A stretch of 44,366 nucleotides of DNA from an uncultured Nitrospirales bacterium (GCA_964401695.1 CAYNZS010000004.1:1-44366), one strand, 5' to 3'; positions 2,473 to 29,476 are shown, numbered from the stretch's first letter. Translations and numbers: made by a program. Notes: generated by a model from the sequence alone, not told the origin.

Positions 2473-2616
2473 GGCGAGACCTCCAGGGGCGCGGGCTATC
2501 TGAAGAAGTGGCGTAGCAAGCGAAGCGTGTGCCCCGCCGCTATCGGGTACGTGAGGTGCATTATCGCATAGGAGGCAAACGCCCCTAACCAGCCTGGCTA
2601 TTCCCATGCCCCGCGC

Positions 2617-3698: not shown

Positions 3699-4208
3699 TC
3701 AGTGCTTGGGCGCCGTGAAGGTGGCCGAGAAAGCCAATCCTTTCCCATCGCGGGCCGCTTCCAGGTGATCCAACTTCTGGAGCACAATTAAATTGTCGCT
3801 CGCGTAAATGAGATGGAGGAAATTGACGAGTTCTTTCATGCTGACGCCATTGAGCGCCAGTTGCACGCGGTCAAAACGGCTTCCTGGGTTGGGTTTGGTT
3901 TTCAGTTGGTTGCGGTCTTGTAGTTTGGCGGCGCGCAGGCTCTCGTTCACAAAGGAATACAGATTAAATTGACGCCTCTTGCGATCGCCAATTTTCGCTT
4001 TGATCGCCTCCTCGCCGCGGCGGTCCGATTCCACCTCGGCGCGGATGATCCGAGCATCGCGCAAGCGATTCTCTGCCTGGGCCAGTTGGCCCTTCGACTT
4101 GGAGTACGCGTCCAACCTATTGGCGATCGGTTTCCATACTACCAAGAGGGTGAGCACGATCGCTCCCGCCACCACAATCCCCCGTTCGCGTTTGCGCAAT
4201 TTGACCAT
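3699..4208 (-). CDS. gspM: Type II secretion protein M-like
   Basis: KRER followed by an N-terminal TM, a coiled coil and a ferredoxin-like C-terminus (LNGVSMKELVNFLHLI). Last gene of the gsp operon. Confidence 0.72.
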   Translation of the reverse strand: MVKLRKRERGIVVAGAIVLTLLVVWKPIANRLDAYSKSKGQLAQAENRLRDARIIRAEVESDRRGEEAIKAKIGDRKRRQFNLYSFVNESLRAAKLQDRNQLKTKPNPGSRFDRVQLALNGVSMKELVNFLHLIYASDNLIVLQKLDHLEAARDGKGLAFSATFTAPKH

Positions 4209-4224
4209 GCCGATTCTATGATCC

Positions 4225-5754
4225 TTAAAGTGTTGCGACTATCGTGAAAGTCTGTTTTCCGCCGTTCGATTGCCGGGCGGCGCCGTCCTCGCCTACATGG
4301 AACAGGAGTGACGACTGCATGCCTTCAAGCACTTGGGCGAAGTCGGCGTCGGTTCTCACCTCGCCCATGATGGTGATCTGCGTCGTGCGGACGCCGCCAA
4401 TGGCAATGCGGGTCAAGCTGACCTTGCTGTCCGGCATGTGCGTCGCCAATTCCTTCAGCACTTCGAGGAAGGTCGGTTTCGAGTAGGTCGCCATATTGAA
4501 CGATTGGCCAGCCTTTTGTTCGTCTTCCTGAGCATCCCGCAGGGCTTCGAGGCTCTTGAATCCACCGATATCACCCAGGGGCCGCCGTTCCGCCGCGTCC
4601 GCCTCGGGAAAGATCTCGACCAACACGTCCCAGACTTGCTGTCCAACGGCGTCGATTCGTTCGGTGTTCCTCTGGTATTCCATGGCGCGTCCGCCAAAAT
4701 AGGCTGAGAAGGCGATAATCGCCAACAGGCAGGTCGCACCGGCGTGAGCGAAGGTCGAACGCGAGGAGCGTCCGGCGGCAAGGTCGTCGGCCAGAAAGTC
4801 GAGAGCGAACGGACCGCCGGCGCTAGCCGCGGCTACGCCGATGGGCGCGGCCCAGCGTTCTTCGAGACCCGCGCCTCCGTTCACGCTCTGCGGGTCGGCC
4901 CCTGGCGTGCCGGCTCCGGCGCCCTTAAGGTTCGACACCAAGTTCAAGAATTCAATGTCGAGCCCCATCTCGTCGGCGAACAGTTCTTTCTCTTCGTCAA
5001 AGAATTCCGCGCCGGTGACGGTCACCGACTCGATTTCCGCTTCAACGCCCCAGCTTGCTGTGAAGGCGCGAAGAAGGTTCCTGATCTCTCTGGCGGCGGC
5101 CTTCGGCGTATCGTGGAATTTGGCGGCCGGCAACGGCATATGGCGTATGTAGGCCAACTGCTTGTTGTGCGTGATCGCCACCACGGAGCCTTCTCTACGC
5201 ACGTGGAACGCGGCGTGAAGGCCGCTCAACGGACCGGCTATCGCGCGCCAAAGGGCCGTCAAGCCGATCGAATCGACGCCCACGCCTTCGACGGCGATGC
5301 CCGCATCCTGCAACACGGATAGTTGGCGTTCAATGGGTTCGCGCCGAAGACCGACGACGAGGACTTCGCTCTGGCCGTCGACCTCCCGCACAGGCAAGTG
5401 CGCCACGGTAAGATCGTCGATGGGAAAAGCCAGATAGGGCTCCAACTCAAACTGGACGGCGGCACCCACTTTCCGGCGCCCCTTGAAGGGTATCGTCAAT
5501 TGGCGCACAACGCTCCACGCGCTCGACACGCACAAGGTATAGACCGTTGGGCGCGACTTTATCTTTACGAGAACTTCCTTGGCAGCCGCTACAAGAGTGT
5601 CGTGTCCTTCTTCCCACGCGTCGCTCAGGGATACTTGCACCGAAACGCTGTGCAGTTCGAGGACTTTCGGGCGTTTTCCACCCGTCTTCACGACCGCGAC
5701 CCGAATCTCGTCGTCCGCGAATTCAATGGCCGCTACTTTGGCTGTTAGTTGCAT
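4225..5754 (-). CDS. gspL: Type II secretion protein L (PilM-like actin-fold domain, TM, PilN-like periplasmic domain)
   Basis: AAIEF...IRVAVV, VRQLTIPF...AVQFELEPYLAFPIDD, one TM, then LEVLKELATHMP. Lies between gspK and gspM. Confidence 0.8.
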   Translation of the reverse strand: MQLTAKVAAIEFADDEIRVAVVKTGGKRPKVLELHSVSVQVSLSDAWEEGHDTLVAAAKEVLVKIKSRPTVYTLCVSSAWSVVRQLTIPFKGRRKVGAAVQFELEPYLAFPIDDLTVAHLPVREVDGQSEVLVVGLRREPIERQLSVLQDAGIAVEGVGVDSIGLTALWRAIAGPLSGLHAAFHVRREGSVVAITHNKQLAYIRHMPLPAAKFHDTPKAAAREIRNLLRAFTASWGVEAEIESVTVTGAEFFDEEKELFADEMGLDIEFLNLVSNLKGAGAGTPGADPQSVNGGAGLEERWAAPIGVAAASAGGPFALDFLADDLAAGRSSRSTFAHAGATCLLAIIAFSAYFGGRAMEYQRNTERIDAVGQQVWDVLVEIFPEADAAERRPLGDIGGFKSLEALRDAQEDEQKAGQSFNMATYSKPTFLEVLKELATHMPDSKVSLTRIAIGGVRTTQITIMGEVRTDADFAQVLEGMQSSLLFHVGEDGAARQSNGGKQTFTIVATL

Positions 5755-5802
5755 GTATAACTTTCTGAGCCCGGCCGGGGGCCCGTTGGCCGCGTCACTC
5801 GG

Positions 5803-7011
5803 TTAGCGGATAACCCGCCAATCAATTACGCGAAACATCTGCTCCGAACCGCTGGCTTCGACGCCTCGGTCGGTCATCTTACCCGTGTCGCGCCACACGT
5901 AGGCCTCGATCCGCACCTTGGCGTCGCCGCTTTGGCCATCTCCATATAAACGGAAGACCTGGCTGGCGAGAGTCAGCATGGGTTTGAATGGAATGATTTC
6001 TTCCTCATCTTCGCCGTTCTCTCGGTTGTTGCCGCGGTTCGCCCCGGCTGGGCGCTCGCCACGCCGGTCGGCAGGCGGTATGATTTTACCGTCTTCCTCG
6101 AGTTCTTGCACGGTGGTGTAGGGACCCATATCTTCGAGCCGCTCGAGCGTGGCCACGGCTTCGTTGTACGGATCGGGGATTTGCTCGTCCGCCGAGAAAT
6201 ACGCCTCTAAGACCTCCAGCTCGGCTGTGTTGATGTTGAGCTTGCCTTCCGGATGGCCATGGACCGTTAGAAGTTTGTTGAGCGGCACCTGCTCATCGTC
6301 GGGATCGCCGAAGTAGAACTCCGGCGTTATGCCTGGGATGAGCAGCAGTTCCTCGATGGAATCCATGGGGCCGTTCTTGGCCGCGTAGGGCGGGTCAAGG
6401 CTGCTGTAATAATCCGTCTCGGCGCCATTGACCGAAGGCTCGTCGTCGAAGTCGAGCCAGTCGATAATCGAATCCACCATTTCCTCTGGCGAGCCCTCTT
6501 CCGGTTCGCGGACACTGAACAGCGTGTAGAGCGCCTCCCGCAGGTATTCATCCACCATCTCTATGCCCTCGATCTGCCCTTGTCCTACGTCTCCAGCGCG
6601 CGTATCTGACGGATAAATAACCAAAGCGTTCAGGTTGAGCTTACCGTATTCGTCTTCGATCTTGCACTGCATGACGCCTTGGTTCACCGGCACCACGGGC
6701 ACGCCATCCGCCCAAGCATCCTCCGAACTGTCAACCACCTCGCTGTTCTGGTAACTCGCATCTTCTTCGCTAATCAACAGGTCCGCCGCCAGCACACCGA
6801 GTCCGCTCGCGATGGCCGATTTCGCAGCCATATACGCTTCCAGATCCGAGATGTGGACTTCCGCGAAGGAGGCCTCGACCTGCATCTCGTAGGTAAAATC
6901 GACGACAATCGCCGTGAGCAGCACAATGATCAACAGGGCCAGCACGAGGGCGAGGCCCTCCTCCCCGCGGCGCCCGAAGCACCCATCGGCGCCTGTCAAA
7001 CGGCCCGTCAT
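5803..7011 (-). CDS. gspK: Type II secretion minor pseudopilin K
   Basis: Prepilin end G|LALVLALLII lacking Glu5, as is typical of GspK; IEDEYGKLNLNAL, IIDWLD.D, KNGPMDSIEELLLIPG, KLNINTA. Confidence 0.92.
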   Translation of the reverse strand: MTGRLTGADGCFGRRGEEGLALVLALLIIVLLTAIVVDFTYEMQVEASFAEVHISDLEAYMAAKSAIASGLGVLAADLLISEEDASYQNSEVVDSSEDAWADGVPVVPVNQGVMQCKIEDEYGKLNLNALVIYPSDTRAGDVGQGQIEGIEMVDEYLREALYTLFSVREPEEGSPEEMVDSIIDWLDFDDEPSVNGAETDYYSSLDPPYAAKNGPMDSIEELLLIPGITPEFYFGDPDDEQVPLNKLLTVHGHPEGKLNINTAELEVLEAYFSADEQIPDPYNEAVATLERLEDMGPYTTVQELEEDGKIIPPADRRGERPAGANRGNNRENGEDEEEIIPFKPMLTLASQVFRLYGDGQSGDAKVRIEAYVWRDTGKMTDRGVEASGSEQMFRVIDWRVIR

Positions 7012-8006
7012 CGACGGCCCCCGCCCGACCGCTGGCCCGCCGCATTGGGGGAATTCGAGCGCACCCGCCGGTCTCCGCGACCCTGCTGGTTTCCCTGGCT
7101 CGACTGGGTCAGTTCTTCCTCGACGTACACATCCTGCATAGGCTCGGTAATTCCCATCCCGGCCGGCACGGTAACAATCAATTGAAAATCGGGATCCTTC
7201 TCGAAATCGATCCCCTCATTCCGCAACGACTCGATCTCTTCTTCGGGGCGCGCAAAGTTGATTCGAAAATGAATACTCCATGGCAGGCGCCCCTCCGCAA
7301 AGGAATCCCATTCGTCTATCCACTCCTCGCCGTCAAAATACTGCATGTCCAGTGTGCGGATCGGAACGCTCCAGCCGGGCGCCTCGAAGCCGACGTCATC
7401 GACAAGATCCTCTGCGTCGCGCTTACCGATGTCGCGCGGTCCTATCATCTCATCCATCTCGCCGGGGGCCTCCATCGTCGGCGTTTCCGTCATCTCGAGC
7501 GTCAGCCTGGGCGGTTCGGCATCTGGTTCGCCGACCCCAAACTTTAACTCTCCCTCGCCTTCGCCTTGCTGAATCTCGAGCGTGACTTGCTTCATAAACC
7601 CTGGCAACGCCATGCCGCCAACCAAGGGCGCGCTCGTAGTAAACGTCAGTTTGTCCGCTGGCCCGTAGGGCCCCGTGTCGTCGACGCCCTCCATCCAATA
7701 GCGCGAACTCGGGCCTTCCTCAATCATCTCGTCTGCCTCGTCGAAATTCGACGCCATTTCATGCAGCGCCGCGCCAGGCCGCCAGTCGCCATACGCCTGG
7801 GCGACGTTGTTCGAGAGGGTATAGGTTAAGAACTCGCGCAAACGAAGCTCCTCCGCCTTCAGCCGCGTATCTTCGGTGGATGATACGACCGCGAAGAAAC
7901 TGCTGGACACAATCGCCGTGATGACGGCAAACAGAGCTACTGCCACCATGATTTCGATGAGCGTGAAGCCGGCGTTAGCGGCGCCGCTGTTTCGATTTGG
8001 ATTCAT
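7008..8006 (-). CDS. gspJ: Type II secretion minor pseudopilin J
   Basis: AG|FTLIEIMVAVAL prepilin motif; C-terminal YFDGEEWIDEWDS...LP. ATG 8006 is preferred over 8069 and overlaps the gspI end. Confidence 0.82.
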   Translation of the reverse strand: MNPNRNSGAANAGFTLIEIMVAVALFAVITAIVSSSFFAVVSSTEDTRLKAEELRLREFLTYTLSNNVAQAYGDWRPGAALHEMASNFDEADEMIEEGPSSRYWMEGVDDTGPYGPADKLTFTTSAPLVGGMALPGFMKQVTLEIQQGEGEGELKFGVGEPDAEPPRLTLEMTETPTMEAPGEMDEMIGPRDIGKRDAEDLVDDVGFEAPGWSVPIRTLDMQYFDGEEWIDEWDSFAEGRLPWSIHFRINFARPEEEIESLRNEGIDFEKDPDFQLIVTVPAGMGITEPMQDVYVEEELTQSSQGNQQGRGDRRVRSNSPNAAGQRSGGGRR

Positions 8007-8397
8007 TAATCTTCGTGTCCGCGCCCGGGTCCGATTGGTTGCCGTCGTAGGCGAAAAAAACCATCTCAATTGAATCGTCGTATCCCTGTACCGTCACCGT
8101 AATATGCAGCAGCCCCGGCATTTCGTCTTCACGGATTTGGGTCGCGGTATAGGAGTACGAGTAATCGGGATAGCGCTCTCCAAAATCTCCGTCGCCCGCG
8201 TCACTGCCCGTCATGGCGTCGCGTTCCGCCTCGCCGATGGCCCATTCGAGCAACATGCGCTCGGTAACTTGGGTCTGCGCGTCGTCAAACAGAGTAAGAG
8301 TTCCGAACTGCGTTTCCATGAGCATGACGAGACCCGTGCACAATATGGCCAGGGCGACGACCACTTCGATCAGGGTAAAGCCGCCCCGTCTATTCAT
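7975..8397 (-). CDS. gspI: Type II secretion minor pseudopilin I
   Basis: GG|FTLIEVVVALAIL; short protein between the H-like and J-like genes. Confidence 0.82.
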   Translation of the reverse strand: MNRRGGFTLIEVVVALAILCTGLVMLMETQFGTLTLFDDAQTQVTERMLLEWAIGEAERDAMTGSDAGDGDFGERYPDYSYSYTATQIREDEMPGLLHITVTVQGYDDSIEMVFFAYDGNQSDPGADTKINESKSKQRRR

Positions 8398-9235
8398 CGT
8401 AACCTAGCTTCCCTTCTCGAAGGCGGGCGCTGCCCGTGATGGGATCCCATTCAACGGTAAAGTACTCTCGTTCGTCGTTGACAATGTAGAACGTAACCTG
8501 CTTCTCGGGGCCGGTCGGCATGATGTCGAATTCGGCGAGGCCGGAACGGTGCTCCTCCTCGCCGTGGCGCACGGATTCGATGGCGACGTTCTTGCGCACG
8601 CGCGTGCGCCGCAGGAGCGGCTCGACGATCTCCTCGGGCTCGACTTCCTCTTGTTCCTCGCCTTCATCGAGGAGATTCAGATTTTCCTCCATCCGCGCCG
8701 CCGTCTTGTCCAAATTGCTTTGCTCGTGCTCGACACGGTTCGCCCGCGTCGTCGTGGCCAAGCGGGACATCCGCTCGAAAGCTTCGAACATGATTTCCGA
8801 TTCGTCTTCCAGCCGTTCGGTGTCTGCTTCGGGATCGACCCGGCCGTCTTCGTCCGGCATGGCCTGCTTGGCGAGAAGCAGCAACTCGATGCTGTCCATG
8901 GGCTCCCGCTTCTTCCCGCCGTCCTTATTGAGAAACGCGTCGTCCTTCTCCTCGGGCTCCGGTTCTGGCCAGCGTTCGCACCAATACTCCTGGCTGTCGA
9001 GGTCAATCTTGACGGTCATTCGCTCATGCAGCAACGTAGCGCGTCCCATGGCGCCGCGTCCGAATCCGGCCAGATGCCGCGCGGCACCCTCGTGGTTGCT
9101 AAATGCGATGGAAGGCGCTAATTGAGGGATGGCCACTGCGCAGACAAGACTGATGATTCCGACGACGACCATCAACTCGACCATCGTGAAGCCAAAGGAG
9201 CGATTGCGATCCCCTATGGAAGAGCGCGAGGACAT
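8390..9235 (-). CDS. gspH: Type II secretion minor pseudopilin H, with a long acidic insertion
   Basis: FG|FTMVELMVVVGII; C-terminal VEWDPITG; directly after gspG. Confidence 0.78.
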   Translation of the reverse strand: MSSRSSIGDRNRSFGFTMVELMVVVGIISLVCAVAIPQLAPSIAFSNHEGAARHLAGFGRGAMGRATLLHERMTVKIDLDSQEYWCERWPEPEPEEKDDAFLNKDGGKKREPMDSIELLLLAKQAMPDEDGRVDPEADTERLEDESEIMFEAFERMSRLATTTRANRVEHEQSNLDKTAARMEENLNLLDEGEEQEEVEPEEIVEPLLRRTRVRKNVAIESVRHGEEEHRSGLAEFDIMPTGPEKQVTFYIVNDEREYFTVEWDPITGSARLREGKLGYDE

Positions 9236-9241
9236 GGTTTC

Positions 9242-9679
9242 CTATTCGTCGGCCAGGTCGTCGCTGCTGATGTCTGCGTCGTCGTCGCTGCCGCCAGGCG
9301 TCCCGTCGGCGCCGTAGGAAGTGATGGTGAAGTTGCGGCCCTCCGATTTGTAGTCGTAGGGGTTGCCCCACGGATCTACAGGAACGGTTTTGCTGTCGAG
9401 GAAATTGCGATTCTTCGAGTTCTCCACCAAGTCTTCAAGGCGTCCTGGGAACTCGTTGAACTGAATCTTGTAACCCATGACAGCGGTGTTGAGGTTCTTG
9501 ATCTGCGCCTGTGCCGTGGCGCGGTCGGCGTCACCCAACGCACCCAGCACGTTCACGCCTACAATCGTAGCGAGCCCCGCGATAATCGCGATCACGACCA
9601 TCAGTTCTACAAGCGTAAAGCCCGCCTCGCCCCTGTGGCTCTTCGGCCGTCCAGTCCAGTTCGGTCGTCTCGGTTCCAT
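9242..9679 (-). CDS. gspG: Type II secretion major pseudopilin G
   Basis: AG|FTLVELMVVIAII, PVDPWGNPYDY, SYGADGTPGGSDDDADI. ATG 9679 follows AAGGAGG. Confidence 0.93.
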   Translation of the reverse strand: MEPRRPNWTGRPKSHRGEAGFTLVELMVVIAIIAGLATIVGVNVLGALGDADRATAQAQIKNLNTAVMGYKIQFNEFPGRLEDLVENSKNRNFLDSKTVPVDPWGNPYDYKSEGRNFTITSYGADGTPGGSDDDADISSDDLADE

Positions 9680-9754
9680 GTCTCTTATCCTCCTTATGTT
9701 CTGGCGCACGCCCATTTGTCGAATAGCGGGGCGCGAAAGGGCCTCTACTCTCTA

Positions 9755-10978
9755 TTACCCAATGTTGGTGCTCATGTTCAGTATGGGCAGCAAGATGGCA
9801 AGCACAAGCAGGCCGACGAACAAGCCCATGATAACGATGATCACCGGCTCGAGGAGGCTTACCAGCGCGTCCAACGAGAGCCGCACATCCTCGTCGTAGA
9901 TTTCGGCGACCTTGATGAGCATTCCCTCGATTTCGCCACTTCGCTGGCCCAGCTCGACCATGTGTATCAACATGGGAGGAAAGACGCCACTTTCCTTCAT
10001 GGGGATCGCGAGATCCCGACCGCGCCGCACACCGGCCTTGATATCCTCCATCGCGTCTTCAAAGTGCTTGTTTTGCACGACCGTGTTGACGACTTCAAGC
10101 GCCTTCATCATCGTGAGGCCGCTTTCGAGCATGGTGCCCAGCGTGCGCGCGAAGCGGGCGCAGACCATCTTCACCTGAAGCGAGCCATACACGGGCACGG
10201 TCAGTTTGAATCGGTCCCAAGCCCTGCGTCCATCCGGCCGCGTTACCCAATACCTCCACACGAATAGTAGGAGCAAGACAGCGCCGGTGATCAGATACCA
10301 GTAGGCGCCGATAAAATCGGTCGTTGTGATAAGTATCTCGGTGAGCCGCGGCAATTTCTGTTCGCGCCGCTCAAACAGAGCCGTGATGCGGGGAACGATG
10401 ACGAGCATGAGAAAGCTGATAATGGCGACGGCAAACAGGCACATGAATGCGGGATAGGCCAATGTTGAGAGCACCTGGGCGCGCATTTTCGCGTCGTGCT
10501 CCATAATGTCGGCGAGCCGAAAGAGCACTCGCTCGAGAGCGCCGCTCGATTCTCCGGCGCGAACCATATTCACGTAGAGCGGGGCGAATACTTTCGGGTG
10601 CGCGGCGAGCGCGGCGGCCAGGCGGCTCCCTTCGCGCACCCGGTCGCGCACATCGAAGATGGCTTTTTGCAGTTTGGGGCGGGTGGTCTGCTCGATCAAC
10701 GCCGAAAGCGACTCGACCAGGGGCATCCCGGCGTTGAGCAATACGGCGAGCTGGCGGGTCATCAGCGCGATATCGCGCACCGTGACGCGGCTTAGGTCCA
10801 CCTCGCCCAATGTCACCGTGCCAGGCTTCGCCGTGCCGAAGGTCTCGTCGAGGCGCGTAGGGAAGAGTTTCTGCTCGCGCAGCTTTCGGCGGGCCGCCGC
10901 GGGCGAATCCGCGTCGATGACGCCTTTCATTTTCTTCCCGCCTTCGCGGGAAATCGCATGATATTCGAAAACCGCCAT
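9755..10978 (-). CDS. gspF: Type II secretion inner-membrane platform protein F
   Basis: TRQLAVLLNAGMPLVESL, YVNMVRAGESSGALE, LAYPAFM, LLEPVIIVIMG. Confidence 0.95.
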   Translation of the reverse strand: MAVFEYHAISREGGKKMKGVIDADSPAAARRKLREQKLFPTRLDETFGTAKPGTVTLGEVDLSRVTVRDIALMTRQLAVLLNAGMPLVESLSALIEQTTRPKLQKAIFDVRDRVREGSRLAAALAAHPKVFAPLYVNMVRAGESSGALERVLFRLADIMEHDAKMRAQVLSTLAYPAFMCLFAVAIISFLMLVIVPRITALFERREQKLPRLTEILITTTDFIGAYWYLITGAVLLLLFVWRYWVTRPDGRRAWDRFKLTVPVYGSLQVKMVCARFARTLGTMLESGLTMMKALEVVNTVVQNKHFEDAMEDIKAGVRRGRDLAIPMKESGVFPPMLIHMVELGQRSGEIEGMLIKVAEIYDEDVRLSLDALVSLLEPVIIVIMGLFVGLLVLAILLPILNMSTNIG

Positions 10979-11025
10979 GTGTTATGCCTCTCGGCTGCGC
11001 GAATGCCAATGGAGCCAGCGCGCGA

Positions 11026-12762: not shown

Positions 12763-12764
12763 AG

Positions 12765-14975: not shown

Positions 14976-15057
14976 GCGTTTTCCTTTCTAGGGCTCAAGC
15001 GCGGACTCCGATTGCGCCGCGCCAGGATGGGCGGGGCCGCGGCGCGCTTTCCATACG

Positions 15058-15984: not shown

Positions 15985-16152
15985 GGATACTTAAACTCCT
16001 GCCCCGCTACGCTGCCGACGCATGGGCACTGTTAGGGGAATAAGGAAAACGAGAAAACACCGCCGCCCGCCTGGTCCGGCCCACCCCCAAAAGGGGCAAC
16101 TCGGGCCTTACCTGATCGTTAACGCAGCCGCGCAGCCTTAAGTTGACTCCGA

Positions 16153-16310
16153 CGCCTTTTTTCTTGCGTTTTGCGGCCAAAAGCCCTGTGTTTGCGGGCT
16201 TCCGTTTCTGGATGCCCGGCTTACTATAAACCGGCGGGGTGGGCGCATTAACCGCGGTTTCAGCGGTAATGCGCTGGTATGCGTTCAAGCCGAACGCAAG
16301 AAAAAAGGCG
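16153..16310. repeat. 158-bp intergenic element bounded by perfect 18-bp inverted repeats, with internal hairpins
   Basis: CGCCTTTTTTCTTGCGTT (16153-16170) is the exact reverse complement of AACGCAAGAAAAAAGGCG (16293-16310). Inner hairpins at 16181-16201, 16243-16274 and 16280-16298. Confidence 0.85.
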
Positions 16311-16347
16311 GAAGAGGAGCGGCGTCGGCCAGGCACGCTGACTAGCG

Positions 16348-18663: not shown

Positions 18664-18713
18664 CTTTGCTCCCTTTCGTTTCAACGAGGGGCAATCATCC
18701 CTCGTACATTCGG

Positions 18714-21700: not shown

Positions 21701-24700
21701 CGAGCCACAGCGGGAACGCGCCGAGAGCGAATGGGATAGTCGGAAAGCGAGCGGTCAATGCCCGCGTCTCATAAACGGATACCAGGTCATGGACCTCCAC
21801 ACCCGTCCGAAGAGGCTTCACGACGGTGGAATTGAGCGTCCGCTCGGGCCACCATGGCTCGATTTCGCCCCAACGGGGATCGTCTTGCCAAACGGGGGCT
21901 ACCACGTCCACATTCTCCGCGTACGGAATCATGCTGTCAATATAGATACCGCCAGTGTTGCTTCCCGTTGTTGGATTGACGCGGCGCGGCTCGACAAACA
22001 CGCGGGTGTCCGCGCCGGGTGTCAGTCCGATTCCGTCTCCCGGTTCTGTGGAGACATCAGTGAATCCGCCATCCGGTCGGAACACGAGAAAATAGTCGAC
22101 GCGAGCCGCGTCGGCAAGCCCGTTTCCGCCGCCCTGGATCTCTTCGTCAGCGCCTTCCCGTGCGTCGGGTACCGGCTCCAGGAATCCTCCAAGCCCGTCA
22201 AGCGGTGATCCAAGCCGTTCGCGGCTCCCATCGCGGAACTGCAGCTTGATCTTCCACCAGGGATCTCCCCCACCCGGTGGGAAACTGATGTATTCCCATT
22301 CGGGCGGTATGATTTCTGGCAGCAGATGGTAGTCGGTGAACGTGACGCCGAACCCATCGGGAGCCGGAGTAGGCGGATCGAAGAGTCCATTGTTATTGGT
22401 GTCGGCAAATATGGCGACACCATAGAACCCGGGGTCGCGCCCTATGGCTGTCTCGACTTCCAGGAATTCGGAACCGTCTTCGAATATGTCCGGGAAGTTC
22501 TCCAGACCGCTTCTCGGATCAAAACCGCCGCTACCCGGTCCTGCGAAGGGATCGCCGCCGATATCTGTAAACACTACGTTGACCTCGCGCAGCGTAGCCT
22601 GTGGTATAGCAGGATCTTCACCCGTGGTGTATACGGGGTGATCCGTATGAGAGAGCCCGGTAGAATGGGCATCAATGCCCACCGCTTGCACCCAAGTGTC
22701 GACCGCGAAGAGCTGCCGCATTCCCTGGAAATGGCCCGCTACAATGTCAAACACCGTTCCCGCCGGGTTGAATCGTGGCCTCGAGAATTCGACCATGGGG
22801 ATCTGGGCCGTGTGCGGGGTAATCCACGAGTTGTGGTAGGCTTCGAGGTACGGCTCGGCTGGGCCTGCCGTGATGTCATAGACGCTGAAACTCGACGTGT
22901 AGAGCGGGTTGTCCTCGAGAATCTCCGCATCGAGGAAGTTGGGACTGTACGAGTCGGCCGGTTCGCCATCTTCGTTTACGGCGAACGGGGTCATGCGCGC
23001 GTCGAGCACTTCGTAGCCAAGGTCGATGCCGTCGCGCCATGTAGCCGAGGTGCGCATGGCGACAATATAGGACAGCCCATTCTCGTCGAATCCGCTCTGT
23101 ACGCGGTACTGGGGATCGTTCGTGCTGCCCGTCCCTATGAAACTCAGGTTGTACTGAATCGAACCGCCCAGGTCCACTCCAAAGCCCACCGGCGCACCGG
23201 TGTTGTCCCAGGTGAACAGCAAGGTGTCCAGCGAGTCAAGCCCCCCATCGAAGTCCTCTTCCGGATCGCCTCCTTCGACGAACAGGCCGTATTCGAGGAT
23301 GTCGGACATCCTCGGATAACTCGACAAAAGCGTGGGGCCGGGATCGGGGTCGGGGTCGGAGACCAGCGAGTAGGTCAGCGTTTGGAGGAACCGCGTCGCT
23401 GGCGCCTCCGCGTCGTCGGACGACATATTGATGTTGAAGAGCGGCACCCAGTCGTTCAACGGCACAAGCGCGTGGCCGCTGCGGTCAACATCTCCCGCAG
23501 CAATCGAATCGGCGACGGTGAGGCTCGCAGTGGGTCCGCCGACGACCGTTCCGCCTCCGCCACCGCCGCCCAGCCGCACGGTGATGTATTGGGGCTTCTC
23601 CACGGTGTCCACTGAGCCATCGGCAAAGGTCACCGTCAGTTCGACCGTGTAGAACCCGGCCATGGTATACAGGTGAAGCGGATTCGGGTCGGCACTCGTG
23701 GGGCTCCCATCGCCGAAATCCCACAGATAGCTCACCGGATTGCCCGACGGCCCGCCATCGGACTGATCCAGGAAGCTGACTTGCAGCGCCGCTTCGCCAT
23801 CCCGCAGACTGGCTATAAATTCGGCGAAGGGCTGCAGGAGAATCTCAATGTAGTCGGGCTTCGTTTCGGTGAATTTGATACCGGTCAGGTCGGTAACGGT
23901 CAAGGACACGGTATAGAGACCTGCGACGGTATACGAATGCGAGGGATTCTGGTCGGTCGATGTGATTCCATCTCCGAAGTCCCACAGATACGCCGAGGCC
24001 AGGGCAGGGTCGGTCAAACTCGTGAACTGTACGGGCAGATCCCGCCCTTGACGCGTGGGTTCCGCGATGAAATCGGGGGTCAGGCCTTGCGCGCCCGTAA
24101 TGACCTCGGTCAGAAGATTCTTGGAGACCGTCGTTCGCACCCAGTTGTAGCCGCTGATGTCCACCTCTTGATGGGCGGTATGCTCATCCATCCAGTAATA
24201 GAGGGGCGGTTCTTTGAAGAAGCTGATGTATCCGATCGCCCGGGTGCCCCAAGCGAATTCACTGAAAACGTCAAACTCGTCGGCCGGTTGTGCCGGCGGC
24301 GGCGGATCGGAGAAGGTGTCGGGATCGGGTTCGGTCGGCGTGTTGGGGCCCCACGAAACGATGCCCACGCGGAAGTCGTCGCCGAGCACCATGTCGAGGC
24401 TACTGCGCAACACGACGAAGAAATCGGGCTCATTCCCCGCTTGAAGCCCGCCAAAAGAATCCGGGATCCACTGGCGCAACCGCGGCTGGTCGGCGATCGG
24501 CGTGGGGACGTTGTCGGTGCCGGGCGAAGAGAAGACGAAGCGGATCTGGTTTGTAGGCTCGCCCGGAATACCAAGACGGACGGGCCGGTCGTCGAGGCGG
24601 ACGGGCAAGTCTATGTACTGGACTGCGCCATTGACAACGACGGGCGGATCGAAGACGCCACGCCTGTTGTTCGGATGGAAGAAGTTGTCGCGGTAGATCG

Positions 24701-27700
24701 AGACACCACTGGATACGCCGTTGGCCGGATCTTCGAAGTCCAGCGAGGCCAAGTCTTCGGCCATGTTGAACTGGCCATCGGGTTCGTCCGGAAATCCGTC
24801 ACCATCGGTGTCGATGCCTTCGTCGTAGATCTCAACGATCATCTGCTCGAGGAAAGTTGGCGATCGCGCGATGAGCCACGCCCCCTCGCGAGGGCTTCCG
24901 CTCAGTAGCGTAACGACGTTCGCGGTGTTCCCGACGATCTCATACGGTTCGAATTCGCTGTCGATGACAAAATCGCCAACCAACGCGCCAACCGGCCAGG
25001 GCAAGCCGCTCACCACAAGGGTAGAGTCGCCGCGTGTGCCCTCACCCAGCGTTTGGGAACTATACGGAGTCGCTTCCGAAGAGGGCCGGTTGGTGGAGGC
25101 GTCGACGCCAATGACAGCGACCGGGATGCCGGCACCGATTTCCGAGTTCGGCGCCAGCAAGGACACCAGCGCCGTCGGCACGTTGAACTCGAGCGTGTCG
25201 TGTCCGTACCAATCTTGCACCGGGTTTTCGTCGGGGCTGCGACGGATAAGCGAGTCGGCCGGCATATGAACATTGGGCGAAAATGCGATACTCGCGTCCT
25301 GTTCTGCCGGTATGCGGCTCGGAAGCTTCGCCGGTATGACGACGCGAATCTTCTCGAACTGACGCACGGAATCCGACGGCCGGATCACGACGAACAAATC
25401 ATCGCCTTCGTTGCCTCCGTCAGGAAGCGCTTTGGGCGTAGCCGCTTTCGCAGCCTTCTCCGCTCGCGCCTCGTCCAGCATGGCATCGACCCCGTCTTCG
25501 GTGAAGCCGCCTTCGGGAATGTCCATGGGCGACACGGCCACAGCAACTTCTTCGACGACAGCGCGAGACTTGCCCCCGTCGCCAGTGCCTAACCCGCCAC
25601 CATAGCGAATGTCGGAAATGGGCACGCGCCAGAGATCCTTCGGCCGCATGCGCAACACCCAAGCGTAGTCATCTTCATCTGCGTCACCGTCTCCATCCAT
25701 ATCGTCTGGGATTAAGTCGCCGTCAAGGTCGATGGGTTCCGGCGCGCCGGCCCACTCGAGGTTGTTGAGCAGCACAGGCGAGTCTGCGCCAAGAACGGCA
25801 TTGAAATTGGAATTGGCCGTTCCATTGAAAATGCCGCCCGTCAAGCCGCTGCCGCTGTTGGAGTCTTCGTAGAGCATCACACCGGACTCAACGTTGGCTC
25901 CATTCGGATCGAGGGGTCGAAGATCGCTAGGCGTAAAGTCGGGACCCCAGAACGCAACGGTCACTTCCTCGAAGAAGGATTGCGAAATGCGATTGACTAC
26001 GGGGTCGTCCGCGCCGACCATGTTGATGCCGATCATTGCCGTGGGCGGGTCGTCGTTGTTCGCGTGCTGCTGAAGCAACCGCGCGGCCCGGTCCACCTGC
26101 GCCCAATCGGATTTTCTCGGATATTGGCCGGGGGGAAGCGCGTTCTCAATGAGATCTTTGCGAGGCCAACTGTCATAACTTGGCAAGGAGGGTCGCAGCG
26201 GTGGATTCGGGAAGAATTGCGAGCGTGGACCGAATGGAGCTTCATCGAAAATCGGGATAAAGAACGGCACCGTTTCATACGACTGTTGATTATAGGCGAA
26301 GATATCGTCGGATACGATGGCAATCTCGTCCCCAATGTTGATGGTGGTTAGAATGACGTCCTTCGCATTCGTTCCAACAAAGTGAATCCCAGAGAATACG
26401 GTCGGGAAACCGGTCCAGTTGTCAAAGGAAACCGCAGCCGAATCGCCCCCCCATTGGCCGAAGGGATCGATCCAAAAATCGAACAGAGATAACTGGCCCG
26501 GCAGGCCTAGGGTATCATCGGCACTGAACGAGGCGTAGTATCCGACCCCCAGCAGGGCTTTCGCGTCCTGGTTGTTCGTGCTATACGTAAGGACGAGATC
26601 ATGCACCTCGACCGCGCCCCGTTGGGGCTTCGCGTTATTCTGGTTGAGGAAGCGCTGTGGCCACCATTTTTCGTTCGCGCCCAGGGTATCTACAGGCTGG
26701 TTCAGGCCGATAGGCGGCGGCTGATCCATCAGCGAGTGATAATGCAGGCCTTCCGGTCCGGGCCAATTGTTGGCAAAGTGTGCTTGGGGCGGGTTTACGA
26801 CGGTCAGCGGGTCGAGTACAATGGAGTCAGGAGAAAAGATCTGAGCGTCGGTCCAGATGCCGCCGTCCCATTCGCCCTCGTTAAGGAAGGGGTTGAACCG
26901 GCGCGGCTCGATGAACGCGCGGAAGTCTGCACCCAGGCCGAGGCCCGTGCCGTCCCCCGCAACCAGCGTCGCGTCCCGGAAGCCACTATCCGGGCGGATG
27001 GTGATAAAATAATCGACCGCCCATGAGGAAGGATCCTCATTGTCGCGGCTGTCCGGCGTGGGGTCCAGATGGCCGGTGGGCTCGTCATCGGAATTGCTGC
27101 GGCGGCGGCCGCCATCGAAGCGCAGCCGAACCTTGAAGGCCGGATCGCCACCCCAAGGCGGGTTGGGAATGTACTCCCAACCCGGGTTGTACGGTTCGAC
27201 CTGCTCGCTGGGAATACTTATATCCGGATCCATCGGATAATCGCCCTGGAAATTCACGCCGCTGTCCGTAGTCGCCACGGGGACGTCGAAGATACTGTTG
27301 TCGTTCGTGTCATGAAACATCCAGGCGCCGTTGAAGGGATATTCCCTGCCGAGGGTCTGATCCGCGGGGACGTAGTCGGGGTGCTCGTCCGCAATCGTGA
27401 ACGGGTCGAACCCGTCGCGCGGATCGAAGCCACCGTTACCCGGAACGGGGTTGTTGGGATCGGCTCCGATGTCCGTGAAGACCAGGTTAACTTCGCGGAT
27501 TCCTCCGTTGCCATGCATGTTGATGCCAATGACCGAGGTCCACGTCTCGAGGGCGAACAGTTGCCGCAGGTCCAGCCACTCGCCGGTGACCATATCGAAG
27601 GTCTGGCTCGCCCCGTCGAAGCGCGGCCGAATGTGCTCCGCCGCGGGCGTGTAGAGCTTATTGACCCATGTCCAAGGGTTGGGATTCGGGCCGGCCCCTG

Positions 27701-29165
27701 TTGCGTCATATACCGAAAAACTCGAGTACATGCGGGTGCAATCGCCGTCTCCGGGATATGGATCCGGCGGATCGCCATCGAGTAGCTCACCATCATCGGT
27801 TAATGGAACGGGGGTTTCGCCCGTGAGGGGATTGAACAGATTCGGGTCGACCATTGTCCGTTCAGTAAGTTGCGCCGAGTAAAACAAACTGGTCGCGTTT
27901 GCCCACGCCGCCGAGGTGCGAAAGAGAACGAAATAGGCGTTGCCGCCATCGGCCGTCGAAGAGCGTGGCCAGGCGGCCCGAAGCTCGGGATCCGCGAGCA
28001 GGTAGCCATTCTCGTAGAAGTCAAGGTTAAACGTCAGGTCGTCGGTCGGTTCTTGATACGGGAAACCGTCGTTGGCCCAAGTGAGAATGGGAGGGGAGTC
28101 GATGACGCCGTTGGGGCCTGGATTGTATACGCCATCCGGGCCTCCTTCGCCAAAATCCTGGACGAGGGCGAACTCGAGAATGGAGTTCATAGTGGGGCTG
28201 ACGAACGCATCGAAGGGCGGGTTCTCTGGAAAGCAACCCGAATCGATACTGTAGACGACTTGACCCAAGACGCGCTCCGCGAAAACACCTGTGTCTTCGT
28301 CCAAGTCGGCCTCCATCGTGATCTGGAACAACGTCGTCCAATCGTTCAGGGGGAGAAGCGAGCCGTCATCGGGAAGCATGTGAGCGAACGAAAGCGACGC
28401 CGACGGCGGATCGTCGGGCGCTTCGGTGACGATAATCTGGATCGTCTCGAAGGGAGGCAGTGGGTCCTCGGCATCTGGGGGCGGCTGGAGAATAAGCGTG
28501 TATGTGCCTTGCTCCCAAATGCGGAGCGTGACTGTGTCTACCGTATCGTCGGTGAGGAGCGGAATGCAGTTGGCCCCGGCGAATCCATCCCATACCCATC
28601 CAGGCGGGTCGCCAGCGGGGTCGCACTCGGCGGCATCGGGATCGTTATTGGACAGATTCCATTCCCGGATTCTGGGGGGCGCGTCGAGGTCGGCCAGCGT
28701 GATCGGTTGCCCTTCGCCGACGACGATCGTTCCGCCAGCGAGCGGGGGCAGCGTGACGAGGGCTTTGGCGCCAGCCTGGGCCATCTGGAATGGTTTCAGC
28801 GCGGCGGCGGAGTTGTCTTTGGGCACATCACGCTGTGTGCCGGGCGAAAAAGATGTGGCCGGTTGGTCGGGCTGCGATGATTCTTTCAATGGGGCCAAGG
28901 GCGTAGCGATGGTGGAATCGCCGAATTCAATTTCGGTGGCGAAACCGATAGCCGCGAACTTGGCTTGCATGGACGGGTACGCTTCGAGCGATGCGTCTGT
29001 TTCCGACACCGCGCGGCTCCCGGCCGCCCGAATAAGCGGTTCGGCTTTCCGCTCGAACTTCGCTATCTCGTCATTATCGACAGTCCCCGGCGAAACCGCC
29101 AGAGCCCCGATGGTGGCTCCGGCCAAGAGGCCCACGATCACAAACGTGCCAATCTTTTTTATCAC
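18714..29165 (-). CDS. Giant (3483 aa) acidic surface/secreted protein: signal peptide, two large internal repeats, 2 PKD, 2 IPT/TIG, CFI-box-CTERM anchor
   Basis: N-terminal signal peptide; two PKD signatures YLWDFGDG...NP.H.Y (about 23575-24085); IPT/TIG-like LRGDNFG and VIGENFS (about 19040-19620); C-terminal GPCFIATAAFG...FRDGVLL...YY..SP, TM, RRRWR. GGAGG precedes the GTG start. Confidence 0.88.
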   Translation of the reverse strand: MIKKIGTFVIVGLLAGATIGALAVSPGTVDNDEIAKFERKAEPLIRAAGSRAVSETDASLEAYPSMQAKFAAIGFATEIEFGDSTIATPLAPLKESSQPDQPATSFSPGTQRDVPKDNSAAALKPFQMAQAGAKALVTLPPLAGGTIVVGEGQPITLADLDAPPRIREWNLSNNDPDAAECDPAGDPPGWVWDGFAGANCIPLLTDDTVDTVTLRIWEQGTYTLILQPPPDAEDPLPPFETIQIIVTEAPDDPPSASLSFAHMLPDDGSLLPLNDWTTLFQITMEADLDEDTGVFAERVLGQVVYSIDSGCFPENPPFDAFVSPTMNSILEFALVQDFGEGGPDGVYNPGPNGVIDSPPILTWANDGFPYQEPTDDLTFNLDFYENGYLLADPELRAAWPRSSTADGGNAYFVLFRTSAAWANATSLFYSAQLTERTMVDPNLFNPLTGETPVPLTDDGELLDGDPPDPYPGDGDCTRMYSSFSVYDATGAGPNPNPWTWVNKLYTPAAEHIRPRFDGASQTFDMVTGEWLDLRQLFALETWTSVIGINMHGNGGIREVNLVFTDIGADPNNPVPGNGGFDPRDGFDPFTIADEHPDYVPADQTLGREYPFNGAWMFHDTNDNSIFDVPVATTDSGVNFQGDYPMDPDISIPSEQVEPYNPGWEYIPNPPWGGDPAFKVRLRFDGGRRRSNSDDEPTGHLDPTPDSRDNEDPSSWAVDYFITIRPDSGFRDATLVAGDGTGLGLGADFRAFIEPRRFNPFLNEGEWDGGIWTDAQIFSPDSIVLDPLTVVNPPQAHFANNWPGPEGLHYHSLMDQPPPIGLNQPVDTLGANEKWWPQRFLNQNNAKPQRGAVEVHDLVLTYSTNNQDAKALLGVGYYASFSADDTLGLPGQLSLFDFWIDPFGQWGGDSAAVSFDNWTGFPTVFSGIHFVGTNAKDVILTTINIGDEIAIVSDDIFAYNQQSYETVPFFIPIFDEAPFGPRSQFFPNPPLRPSLPSYDSWPRKDLIENALPPGQYPRKSDWAQVDRAARLLQQHANNDDPPTAMIGINMVGADDPVVNRISQSFFEEVTVAFWGPDFTPSDLRPLDPNGANVESGVMLYEDSNSGSGLTGGIFNGTANSNFNAVLGADSPVLLNNLEWAGAPEPIDLDGDLIPDDMDGDGDADEDDYAWVLRMRPKDLWRVPISDIRYGGGLGTGDGGKSRAVVEEVAVAVSPMDIPEGGFTEDGVDAMLDEARAEKAAKAATPKALPDGGNEGDDLFVVIRPSDSVRQFEKIRVVIPAKLPSRIPAEQDASIAFSPNVHMPADSLIRRSPDENPVQDWYGHDTLEFNVPTALVSLLAPNSEIGAGIPVAVIGVDASTNRPSSEATPYSSQTLGEGTRGDSTLVVSGLPWPVGALVGDFVIDSEFEPYEIVGNTANVVTLLSGSPREGAWLIARSPTFLEQMIVEIYDEGIDTDGDGFPDEPDGQFNMAEDLASLDFEDPANGVSSGVSIYRDNFFHPNNRRGVFDPPVVVNGAVQYIDLPVRLDDRPVRLGIPGEPTNQIRFVFSSPGTDNVPTPIADQPRLRQWIPDSFGGLQAGNEPDFFVVLRSSLDMVLGDDFRVGIVSWGPNTPTEPDPDTFSDPPPPAQPADEFDVFSEFAWGTRAIGYISFFKEPPLYYWMDEHTAHQEVDISGYNWVRTTVSKNLLTEVITGAQGLTPDFIAEPTRQGRDLPVQFTSLTDPALASAYLWDFGDGITSTDQNPSHSYTVAGLYTVSLTVTDLTGIKFTETKPDYIEILLQPFAEFIASLRDGEAALQVSFLDQSDGGPSGNPVSYLWDFGDGSPTSADPNPLHLYTMAGFYTVELTVTFADGSVDTVEKPQYITVRLGGGGGGGTVVGGPTASLTVADSIAAGDVDRSGHALVPLNDWVPLFNINMSSDDAEAPATRFLQTLTYSLVSDPDPDPGPTLLSSYPRMSDILEYGLFVEGGDPEEDFDGGLDSLDTLLFTWDNTGAPVGFGVDLGGSIQYNLSFIGTGSTNDPQYRVQSGFDENGLSYIVAMRTSATWRDGIDLGYEVLDARMTPFAVNEDGEPADSYSPNFLDAEILEDNPLYTSSFSVYDITAGPAEPYLEAYHNSWITPHTAQIPMVEFSRPRFNPAGTVFDIVAGHFQGMRQLFAVDTWVQAVGIDAHSTGLSHTDHPVYTTGEDPAIPQATLREVNVVFTDIGGDPFAGPGSGGFDPRSGLENFPDIFEDGSEFLEVETAIGRDPGFYGVAIFADTNNNGLFDPPTPAPDGFGVTFTDYHLLPEIIPPEWEYISFPPGGGDPWWKIKLQFRDGSRERLGSPLDGLGGFLEPVPDAREGADEEIQGGGNGLADAARVDYFLVFRPDGGFTDVSTEPGDGIGLTPGADTRVFVEPRRVNPTTGSNTGGIYIDSMIPYAENVDVVAPVWQDDPRWGEIEPWWPERTLNSTVVKPLRTGVEVHDLVSVYETRALTARFPTIPFALGAFPLWLDSLGLTASRFLNFDTPPVGYWEVSVSYNAFGVPLYTTNSRTDSSYPAFESVPFFLPEFDGGILGPRSRFYQNPLALPSMPDYLTWPAELAPGAYPHLTDWAPEDRQARLLVQRVDSRSGLMPILGFNLVGNGDPVVLASNPSTLDELTVAIWGPGFDPSDLLPLDPEGDDLDSGVTLWADDDINAGDGVFLSSPEANFGVAGFQFDETVVPLNLLGWKDAAEPVDIDGDGVADDVDGDGDVDSGDNAWVLTLTPQTPIVLPGNDQDNEGTADSPHTFGDDLFFVVKTSKDISAHEKFRAFVPFTLPSRDAGQRQAGMRITPQGTVSASALTKRNPEEGTVVDFYSHDMLNVNVPVDITNIASHNVQLRPNSPALPVFGIDAYTNRPELTVDSGTEGVGAPEQFLDTSKAWAADVYRGKYLVDSGYKTFAIVGNTADRLTLVSGEPHAGSYLVVKDPTFLEQIIVEFERASTASTFSFFVDLLPLAADQSVSGVALYRDNDGHPDNLNGVFDPGIDIPVVLDDSPVLVGGAGQPTAQVKFVMSSPGTDDFPVPIEEQPRLRQWVPNAQGGPGAVEFEGPDFFVVVRASAELGEGADFTAAIVSWGPNTPSEPDPDTFTFPLPPEQPADEFKKFSEFPFGSRGLGFITMYEEAPTRYWMRERVAYSEPDPSPLRWIRSTTSKKVQSGTITTQDALVTPTMIVIDSATPGGLPLAIPEGETIEVLLRGDNFGSAAQVAIGGYSVEVLESSDYVIRLALSDLPNVEPQTPVVTIVRNPFTLEEATRADLFTLIEASQGTRVLDVVPSRGSSVDFSVTVIGENFSQPPLIEVIFGEMVMPVISVSEDGTSISVGFPPGGMPDTGALDVQVKNYSKVGVLASQDTLLSGFTFLNDPALMGPCFIATAAFGSPLEARLDTFRAFRDGVLLQSAAGVALVDAYYTASPALADEVAARPWLASVVRMVLIPAAWFLEFPIALTFALLAVAGASLGRRRWRAARN

Positions 29166-29306
29166 CTGACCCTACCTCCGAAAAAAACGTTTCGCCGACA
29201 TGCCGCGCTTCGTGAGAACGGAATTCACCCAGGGCTTGGGCCTACCCCACAACTCCACTCCCGGCCGAAACGAAACTTTGACGCCGCTACCCTCATCCGC
29301 TCCTGG

Positions 29307-29326
29307 AGCACACAACGGTCGTGTGC
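29307..29326. promoter_or_regulatory. Operator-like palindrome in the 5' leader; 13 bp are repeated in the promoter spacer
   Basis: GCACACAAC-G-GTCGTGTGC (29308-29326). AGCACACAACGGT occurs at both 29307-29319 and 29453-29465. Confidence 0.5.
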
Positions 29327-29447
29327 ATTCACCGCCGCATACGGCCTCGGCAAAACACTCGTAAACACCAAGCGGAAGCGCCCAAGAAAGACGCGGGGCT
29401 GCACCTGCACGTCGACTAATAAACGTTTGGCTTAATACTTCGGCTTT

Positions 29448-29476
29448 TTTATAGCACACAACGGTATAAGTGTCAA
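29448..29476 (-). promoter_or_regulatory. Near-consensus sigma70 promoter for the giant-protein gene
   Basis: Minus strand TTGACA (29476-29471), 17-nt spacer, TATAAA (29453-29448) with an extended -10 TG, inside an AT-rich patch. Confidence 0.8.

Follow-up and report, generated by a model that had tools for sequence, protein, structure and literature searches.

Arrival of GlyGly-CTERM and MYXO-CTERM proteins at the cell surface needs a type II secretion system (T2SS), and Synerg-CTERM co-occurs with a divergent T2SS, as stated in passages of PMC11980579 and 10.1101/2023.06.07.544157; the same passages describe Cys-bearing tags as predicted, and in the case of MYXO-CTERM shown, to be cut by intramembrane proteases of the CPBP/Rce1-like type. 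Here, we analyse a locus in a stretch of 44 366 nucleotides deposited under the name of an uncultured Nitrospirales bacterium (GCA_964401695.1, CAYNZS010000004.1:1-44366; 'the window' below means this whole stretch). It is composed of a gene for a protein of 3483 amino acids (the giant), a gene for a predicted metalloprotease (the metzincin) and the T2SS genes gspC to gspM. The giant ends in CFI-box-CTERM, a domain curated in NCBIfam (NF041770). We regard the locus, which comes from a marine member of the phylum, as a conserved T2SS operon of Candidatus Hydrogenedentota, headed by two exported and membrane-tethered proteins that are most plausibly its own cargo; the chances of this reading being correct appear to us evenly balanced. 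An earlier note on the same DNA had proposed a dedicated surface-display system for CFI-box-CTERM proteins, an interpretation that our analysis supports in part.

The MYXO-CTERM/MrtX/T2SS system of Myxococcus xanthus, as described in passages of PMC11980579 and 10.1101/2023.06.07.544157, shares with this locus a C-terminal invariant Cys, a transmembrane (TM) helix and an Arg cluster; it also shares a functional link to the T2SS, many unrelated cargo proteins per genome and the presence of CPBP/Rce1-like genes. It differs in that the short Cys tag found here on 22 of 31 orthologous giants (see below) matches no curated model, that no CPBP gene of the window's genome passes a myxosortase cut-off, that the CFI form of the tail has an extra helical module of ~60 amino acids and that the putative cargo genes stand inside the T2SS operon. 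In the GlyGly-CTERM/rhombosortase pathway, for example that of Vibrio VesB, a membrane-tethered protease is passed to the T2SS after its tag has been cut (passage of 10.1101/2023.06.07.544157), much as is proposed below, but there is no GlyGly motif here and no rhombosortase over cut-off. The likeness to Synerg-CTERM is that a tag co-occurs with a T2SS cassette (same source, in a passage on that tag). The theme of a Cys tag leading to a T2SS is known; what is added here is an uncurated short tag and a fusion of a metzincin with a domain resembling tissue inhibitors of metalloproteinases (TIMPs).

C-terminal tails of the giant protein and their exchange

The giant gene occupies positions 29165..18714 of the minus strand (GTG start, with GGAGG 10 nt upstream of it) and its CFI-box-CTERM module positions 18717..19016 (minus strand; aa 3384-3483), where Cys3384 and the head CFIATAAFGSP are followed by a helical part of ~60 aa, a hydrophobic segment and RRRWR. 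The tail scores 75.5 bits against NF041770 (cut-off 40; aa 3384-3450, profile positions 1-67) and the box is truly C-terminal, with 100 aa from the Cys to the stop. AlphaFold2 (AF2) modelled the module with low confidence (predicted local distance difference test, pLDDT, 29-60); the box proper is helical in AF2 models. A homologous block is present in the metzincin, 28 of 56 residues (50%) being identical between the two proteins (E = 2e-15). This second block (residues 502-543) aligns only with positions 17-58 of NF041770, with a borderline score (36.6 bits by hmmscan, 40.4 bits in a six-frame search of the genome), and it is internal, since 195 residues lie beyond its basic cluster. The two are the only NF041770 matches in the 4.1-Mb genome. 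Thus, the proposal that both proteins carry the same Cys-led anchor block stands as regards their homology and the passing score of the giant, but the block of the metzincin is neither C-terminal nor clearly above the cut-off. No paper on CFI-box-CTERM was found in the literature searched, and a similarity search of the giant's tail in a protein-cluster atlas returned only unnamed clusters (score 0.91, recognition below its mark).

Conservation was assessed in 41 genomes sampled from the same order (Hydrogenedentota); neighbourhoods were fetched, open reading frames (ORFs) called and their products compared with the proteins of the window. The metzincin is single-copy in 32 of the 41 genomes, with a full-length match in most, and a giant homolog lies directly upstream of it in 31 of these 32 (24 ORF-called loci, 6 placed by the coordinates of the metzincin search and the window itself; in G021 the gene is at a contig start and its neighbour is not judgeable). 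In 23 of the 32 genomes the metzincin is followed, within its contig, by gspC/D (21 from the coordinates of metzincin and GspD searches, G007 by neighbourhood comparison and G002 by the GspD search and a later profile search), and contig ends make the linkage not judgeable in four others (G001, G029, G030 and G014). The arrangement of giant, metzincin and T2SS is kept across 13 families of the order, so that the adjacency on which the earlier note relied proves to be conserved. Another check that it proposed, co-occurrence of CFI-box genes with T2SS across genomes, turned out to be uninformative: CFI-box matches are found in all 41 genomes (2-8 per genome), NF041770 is present in 125 of 126 genomes of the phylum and a GspD ortholog in 39 of the 41, the two misses having other secretin and GspF genes. 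Because both features are near-universal in the phylum, co-occurrence at the genome level cannot discriminate. Individual genomes of Hydrogenedentota seem to encode several systems of T2SS or type IV pilus type, since many secretin and GspF matches were seen (8-12 secretin-family and 6-7 GspF/PilC-family matches each in G010, G031 and G070).

The C-termini of the 31 giants come in two forms. Nine end in the CFI box (G000, which is the window's genome, G001, G002, G003, G007, G016, G027, G033 and G018) and 22, from most of the other families, in a short tag of the MYXO-CTERM kind built of [FL]GC[AGS], 8-12 Gly/Ser-rich residues, D, a hydrophobic helix of ~16 residues and a basic cluster. Within the short tag, the Cys and the Asp preceding the TM helix are both invariant (22/22), and all 30 giant C-termini that were aligned have Cys in this column, whichever tail follows. 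The Cys, TM and Arg parts of a tripartite signal (as in MYXO-, JDVT-, Synerg- and CGP-CTERM) are present in the CFI form as well, but ~60 residues separate its Cys from the TM segment. In a quick tree of 25 metzincin sequences (seven were left out: G003, G035, G039, G033, G018, G023 and G021), the short-tag lineages form one clade (19 rows; SH-aLRT 97), the one grouping that this tree supports, and the CFI lineages f4 and f1 fall outside it. G039 has a short tag inside family f4, which implies that the tail was switched at least a second time. None of the curated NCBIfam sorting models matched the short tag when ten giant tails were scanned at E up to 10; the sole hits were to JDVT-CTERM, at 7.3-8.1 bits against a cut-off of 27 (E 2.5-4.5). 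About 10 further unrelated ORFs of the window's genome end in this tag (contigs C126, C21, C278, C209, C244, C40, C33, C100, C29 and C105), so that it behaves as a general sorting signal of the organism; it looks like an undescribed signal used throughout the phylum. Since orthologous cargo candidates of one T2SS operon alternate the two tails at the same Cys, the CFI box with its TM segment may do the same job as the Cys tag. This exchange is the best support, as inference and short of proof, for a T2SS-tied sorting role of the CFI + TM tail.

The giant itself is acidic (D 9.4%, K 1.4%), has 5 Cys among its 3483 residues and starts with a hydrophobic signal or anchor. Much of it is a tandem duplication (aa 254-1804 versus 1878-3282, 35% identity) with two PKD domains between the repeat units (23577..24032, minus strand; aa 1712-1863; PF18911, E = 2.7e-30; ColH PKD matches in the PDB), and these two were the only domains recognised by Pfam and by a PDB sequence search. 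The last 1184 aa gave a beta-rich AF2 model (mean pLDDT 66.8) for which Foldseek returned only generic multi-Ig chains of Ig, IPT, cadherin and S-layer type, with low template-modelling scores (TM-scores). The last Ig-like domain of the short-tag giants resembles the NCBIfam choice-of-anchor model NF058597 CoaZ_rpt_PGGG (15-28.5 bits in 8 of 10 tails scanned), and orthologous giants do bear differing anchors; however, each of these scores is under the cut-off of 30. Orthologs range from 1700 to 4400 aa. Very large proteins with attachment-type domains are also conserved beside gspD/E/F-like clusters in another uncultured phylum, the Omnitrophota, according to passages of 10.1101/2023.11.21.568195, but those belong to another protein family and are much larger, and the passages mention no Cys tag.

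Both tails end in a TM segment and a basic cluster, which is enough for anchoring, and this raises the alternative that the giant and the metzincin are permanent periplasmic proteins anchored in the inner membrane, as an envelope scaffold or T2SS accessory, with nothing cut or secreted. The N-terminus of the giant has no obvious AxA site and could serve as a second anchor; the protein is very large for a T2SS substrate; and the metzincin is retained although catalysis is lost in 8 of 25 orthologs (see below), as would be the case for a structural protein. However, a Cys before the tail that is invariant in 30/30 giants and 25/25 metzincins would be needless in a plain anchor, and some 10 unrelated ORFs share the short tag, as expected of a sorting signal. 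The Gly-rich linkers before the Cys and the domain content of Ig, cadherin and S-layer type are likewise at odds with such a role, and we consider permanent anchoring unlikely.

Several observations weigh against the giant and the metzincin being cargo of the T2SS beside them. Adjacency alone does not make a substrate. The pair lies away from the T2SS on a long contig in 5 of the 32 genomes (G016, G022, G023, G037 and G031), and nine genomes from four genera of the window's own family possess CFI-box genes and a T2SS without either gene. A cargo of 3483-4400 aa would also be far larger than T2SS substrates generally are. Against a wider link of the CFI box with the T2SS stands that, among the CFI-box matches listed, apart from the giant and the metzincin, none was near a gspD match on the same contig, and this includes a recurrent family of ~1300 aa. 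As for processing enzymes, the window's genome has four PF02517 (CPBP/Rce1-like) genes, none of them over a myxosortase-type cut-off; three score below Mrt_core, MrtJ and MrtA. No rhombosortase (43.5 versus 84) or exosortase over cut-off was found in this genome, and no curated tripartite-tag model matched the CFI box. One of the CPBP genes encodes an ABC permease fused to a CPBP protease (contig C3, 14144-16243; NF041647 ABC_perm_CPBP, 725.9 versus 435) and is a candidate tag-processing enzyme.

CFI boxes also occur outside the phylum. A tblastn search of plasmids with the giant's tail gave 43 records, from Xanthomonas (23), Burkholderia (9), Acinetobacter (3), Pannonibacter (2) and, with one record each, Paracoccus, a Comamonadaceae bacterium, Calothrix, Haliscomenobacter, Methylophaga and the archaeon Haloquadratum walsbyi. 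The three proteins read (plasmid records L070 3218-4252, L071 919-1782 and L072 3656-4240) are an Mrr-like nuclease of H. walsbyi, a TPR protein of A. lwoffii on a 5-kb plasmid and a cold-shock-domain protein of B. ubonensis; none has an N-terminal signal peptide, and each chain stops 10-15 residues past the box with no TM segment and Arg tail. The plasmid genes neighbour restriction, anti-restriction and replication genes. Because signal-less proteins carry the box without the TM tail, the 69-position box itself is not an export tag, and this too counts against the cargo reading. In these other settings the box may act in the cytoplasm or at the membrane periphery; the phylum-specific combination of box, TM segment and Arg cluster may nevertheless be an export tag.

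The plasmid proteins, together with the helical nature of the box proper and the dispersed CFI-box genes without a T2SS neighbourhood, favour another possibility: that the box serves in membrane association or oligomerisation generally and plays no part in sorting, having on the giant simply taken the place of the spacer in an older Cys tag, the link to the T2SS being that of the giant and not of the box. Within the phylum, however, all 20 other boxes that were read follow a Gly-rich linker, start at a Cys 100-109 aa from the stop and end in a TM segment and basic (Arg) cluster at a fixed distance. Moreover, the CFI Cys sits in the column of the short tag's Cys, and the head C-F-I-A could, by a reading of its letters alone, be CaaX-like. 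We therefore treat a box devoid of any sorting role as a doubtful though serious possibility. As to the connection between CFI-box proteins and the T2SS drawn in the earlier note, it gains support for this particular cargo from the tail swap and the conserved synteny, but loses it for the domain at large in view of the dispersed genes and the plasmid proteins.

A metzincin joined to a predicted TIMP-like domain

The metzincin gene (18684..16348, minus strand) encodes a 778-aa fusion of a metzincin, a CFI-like hairpin and a TIMP-like domain. Its zinc motif, HEAGHWMGIGH (18028..18060, minus strand; aa 209-219), is followed by a Met-turn, TPTMFP, at aa 255-260; the profile matches matrix metalloproteinases (MMPs) and karilysin at the zinc motif (best E = 4.7e-5), and there was no Pfam peptidase match. 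Of 25 aligned orthologs, 17 retain HExxHxxGxxH, with H, E, H, G, H and M all invariant among them, and 8 have lost it. Upstream of the motif, at aa 36-70 (window 18475-18579, minus strand), the metzincin profile also matches EF-hand calcium sensors (profile positions 13-39, consensus FDTNNDGxV...EG), which suggests a putative calcium site at the N-terminus of the catalytic domain.

The motif GDPNDVCPLNVI, with an invariant Cys, precedes a variable Gly/Thr linker and the CFI-like module. The region at 16936..17229 (minus strand) contains this Cys (Cys486, invariant in 25/25 sequences), the module, which is helical in AF2, a first TM segment (aa 562-578) and RKRRR (aa 579-583). A second hydrophobic segment follows (16867..16935, minus strand; aa 584-606) and ends in AHA, with nearly invariant Ala at -3 and -1. 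The remaining 172 aa (16351..16866, minus strand; aa 607-778) are predicted to form a beta-barrel domain with a fold like that of TIMP and netrin-like (NTR) modules, with AF2 pLDDT mostly 79-97. An AF2 model of residues 478-778, based on a 23-row alignment (mean pLDDT 82.5), shows a helical bundle and then a beta-barrel, and the top Foldseek matches to it in the PDB were agrin NtA, TIMP-1/2, the NTR domains of PCOLCE and meteorin, and the C-terminal domain of C3.

The catalytic domain (aa 36-305) was then modelled with zinc and with the C-domain starting exactly after AxA, alongside three controls. The ipSAE (interaction prediction score from aligned errors) was 0.84 in all three runs versus 0.00 for the best control; in a benchmark, 58 of 80 solved complexes and 2 of 110 mismatched pairs reached this mark. 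Between runs, at least 77% of contacts recur, and the pLDDT of the partner is at least 88. The predicted interface contains the first five residues of the C-domain (partner 130-134), H209, E210, H213 and H219, and the Met-turn. The C-domain is thus predicted to plug the active site of its own metzincin; the model supports binding, but does not show it. Some points diminish the TIMP likeness. The Foldseek matches are weak (E 1e-3 to 7e-2, and 1e-3 to 1e-2 for agrin NtA, TIMP-1/2 and PCOLCE; target-normalised TM-scores 0.3-0.54, with 0.47-0.54 and E of about 1e-3 for the likeness to TIMP), a sequence search of the PDB with the C-domain gave nothing, so that any similarity to TIMPs is invisible by sequence, and the domain has neither the Cys1 nor the disulfides of TIMPs: the residue after AxA is A, S, R, Q, L or D, and the domain encoded in the window is Cys-free. 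MMP-TIMP complexes have already been solved, and part of the complex score may be memory.

With a profile of the C-domain, 16,882 representatives were retrieved (E up to 1e-3); fusions of 750-850 aa make up most of the best ~110. Stand-alone homologs are ~190 aa long, with the domain starting at residues 26-35 behind a signal peptide of its own; the seven members scanned had no Pfam match. A profile of the stand-alone proteins that includes the signal peptide aligns onto the fusions from its position 2-12, and since it aligns through the internal hydrophobic segment of the metzincin, this segment is the counterpart of a signal peptide. No second copy of the C-domain was found in the window's genome. 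A metzincin co-encoded with a protein of OB/NTR fold recalls the MMP-TIMP couple and also Listeria, where a metzincin and a TIMP-like lipoprotein are encoded as a separate pair (PMC8235301). As in MMP-TIMP complexes, the predicted contact is made by a free N-terminal segment of the partner in the active-site cleft. In contrast with both, a single polypeptide holds the two parts here; a TM hairpin links them, and the second helix of this hairpin would act as an internal signal peptide. Cys1, disulfides and detectable sequence similarity to TIMPs are lacking. No single-chain metzincin/TIMP-like protein with an internal signal peptide was found in the literature searched.

These features bear on the version put forward in the earlier note, namely a system dedicated to the display of CFI-box-CTERM proteins, with the giant forming an S-layer or adhesin coat after processing by the protease. 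That the two genes are adjacent in 31/32 genomes, that a Cys-led module is common to both proteins and that the zinc motif is intact in this genome all agree with it. However, the idea that the neighbouring protease processes the giant is weakened by the loss of the zinc motif in 8/25 orthologs that keep the pairing and by the nature of the second gene product, a metzincin/TIMP-like fusion with a domain predicted to block its own site. Neither does a system dedicated to the CFI box fit with the presence of the box on only 9/31 giants, with the dispersal of other CFI-box genes, most of them away from a T2SS, or with nine relatives that have CFI-box proteins without such a protease. We find it very unlikely in this form.

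The T2SS operon, its expression and its surroundings

From 29165 down to 3699, all genes are co-oriented on the minus strand in the order giant, metzincin and gspC to gspM; their places agree with those given in the earlier note. The first T2SS gene is gspC (15984..15058, with T2SSC and PDZ domains; PF11356, 29.4 versus 27; NF041515 GspC_delta, 70.4, below the cut-off of 150), followed on the same strand by the secretin gene gspD (14975..12765; TIGR02517, 403 versus 351), the ATPase gene gspE with an N-terminal domain of MshEN type (12762..11026; TIGR02533, 658.9 versus 630) and gspF (10978..9755; TIGR02120, 430.4 versus 424). The pseudopilin genes are gspG (9715..9242; 89.9 versus 88.85), gspH (9235..8390), gspI (8397..7975) and gspJ (8069..7008), the last three recognised by the N_methyl motif only, and gspK (7011..5803; 139.2 versus 130). 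gspL, with a PilM-like N-terminus (5754..4225; PF05134, 33.3 versus 25.5), and gspM (4208..3699; PF04612, 29.8 versus 27.8) complete the set. Five components (GspD, E, F, G and K) score above their NCBIfam equivalog cut-offs, whereas three (GspC, L and M) stay below these and exceed the Pfam gathering scores only. A prepilin peptidase is absent from the operon, beyond which no search for it was made.

The giant and metzincin genes are separated by 29 nt and the metzincin gene and gspC by 363 nt, whereas neighbouring gsp genes overlap slightly or lie no more than 82 nt apart. When the 363-nt gap was scanned for terminators and promoters, the minus strand gave no hit; a 109-aa ORF in this gap has no Pfam match. 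Upstream of the giant, at 29448..29476 (minus strand), lies a sigma-70-like promoter (TTGACA at 29476-29471, a 17-nt spacer and TATAAA at 29453-29448), ~285 nt upstream of the GTG. Read directly from the sequence, it is genuine as a consensus match; it was not listed by the promoter scan because the scan accepts only sites that have T as their final letter.

Contigs from RNA libraries of three studies match the giant, metzincin and gspC/D genes with at least 99% identity; such contigs may contain DNA and are no proof of one transcript, which tempers what they say for a common operon. One (18617-18884) spans the giant/metzincin junction and another (28994-29250, two runs of one sample) covers the giant's start codon and 85 nt upstream. 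Among the pieces listed, none bridges the gap between metzincin and gspC, and parts of the stretch are without coverage. Two differences from the window were seen: 4 letters are missing at 21468, inside the giant gene, in one contig, and C replaces G at 29146 in two contigs from runs of one sample. They may be strain variants or assembly errors.

The flanks of the locus in the window are a divergent peptide ABC transporter upstream, and a LOG-like gene and a molybdopterin oxidoreductase downstream. A 778-aa multihaem cytochrome c with NrfB, c7 and MtrC-like matches is encoded at 35605-37941 (plus strand), between GFO/IDH/MocA oxidoreductases with twin-arginine translocation (TAT) signals; a HEAT-repeat protein then follows. 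In the relatives examined, genes for an ABC ATPase and an ABC-2 permease and for GldG-like and DUF4340 proteins stand ahead of the giant, and in G006 and G008, which have neither giant nor metzincin, the DUF4340 gene is directly upstream of gspC. This cluster is not at that position in the window; it was considered as a link to a sorting enzyme and rejected, as it differs from the CPBP-fused ABC permease of contig C3.

A possible export route and its meaning

To return to the reading of giant and metzincin as cargo of their own operon, the route could be as follows. Both proteins would be exported by Sec and kept in the inner membrane by the C-terminal module, a topology suggested by the hydrophobic segments and the positive-inside rule. 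Next, an intramembrane enzyme may modify the tag and cleave it at the Cys; by analogy with the known Cys-tag systems, the product of one of the four CPBP/Rce1-like genes could do so. The co-encoded T2SS would carry the products to the cell surface, as the conserved synteny and the tail swap suggest. In the metzincin, signal peptidase would free the N-terminus of the TIMP-like domain, which, if the complex model is right, would sit in the catalytic cleft and keep the protease silent in the periplasm. Export, cleavage and lipidation of the two proteins are steps that we infer throughout.

A fuller proposal can be formulated, which we advance tentatively and think clearly less probable than its opposite: the CFI box with its TM tail would be a sorting signal of a new, Cys-led type, exchangeable for an uncurated MYXO-CTERM-like tag, that brings a giant coat protein or adhesin to the T2SS of its own operon; the metzincin would be a single-chain counterpart of an MMP/TIMP pair, armed only when the T2SS separates it from its periplasmic inhibitor. 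If true, the metzincin would be the first case of an MMP/TIMP-like pair in a single chain; its internal signal peptide would give the inhibitor a free N-terminus, an unusual route in that this end would come from the middle of a polypeptide. The stand-alone secreted family of ~190 aa may likewise be metzincin inhibitors. The swap of tags on one cargo gives a direct and testable clue to the function of CFI-box-CTERM and, if the proposal is true, this orphan NCBIfam domain would acquire its first export route. Cys tags that hand proteins to the T2SS are known from a few lineages; here, a whole uncultured phylum keeps candidate cargo inside its T2SS operon.

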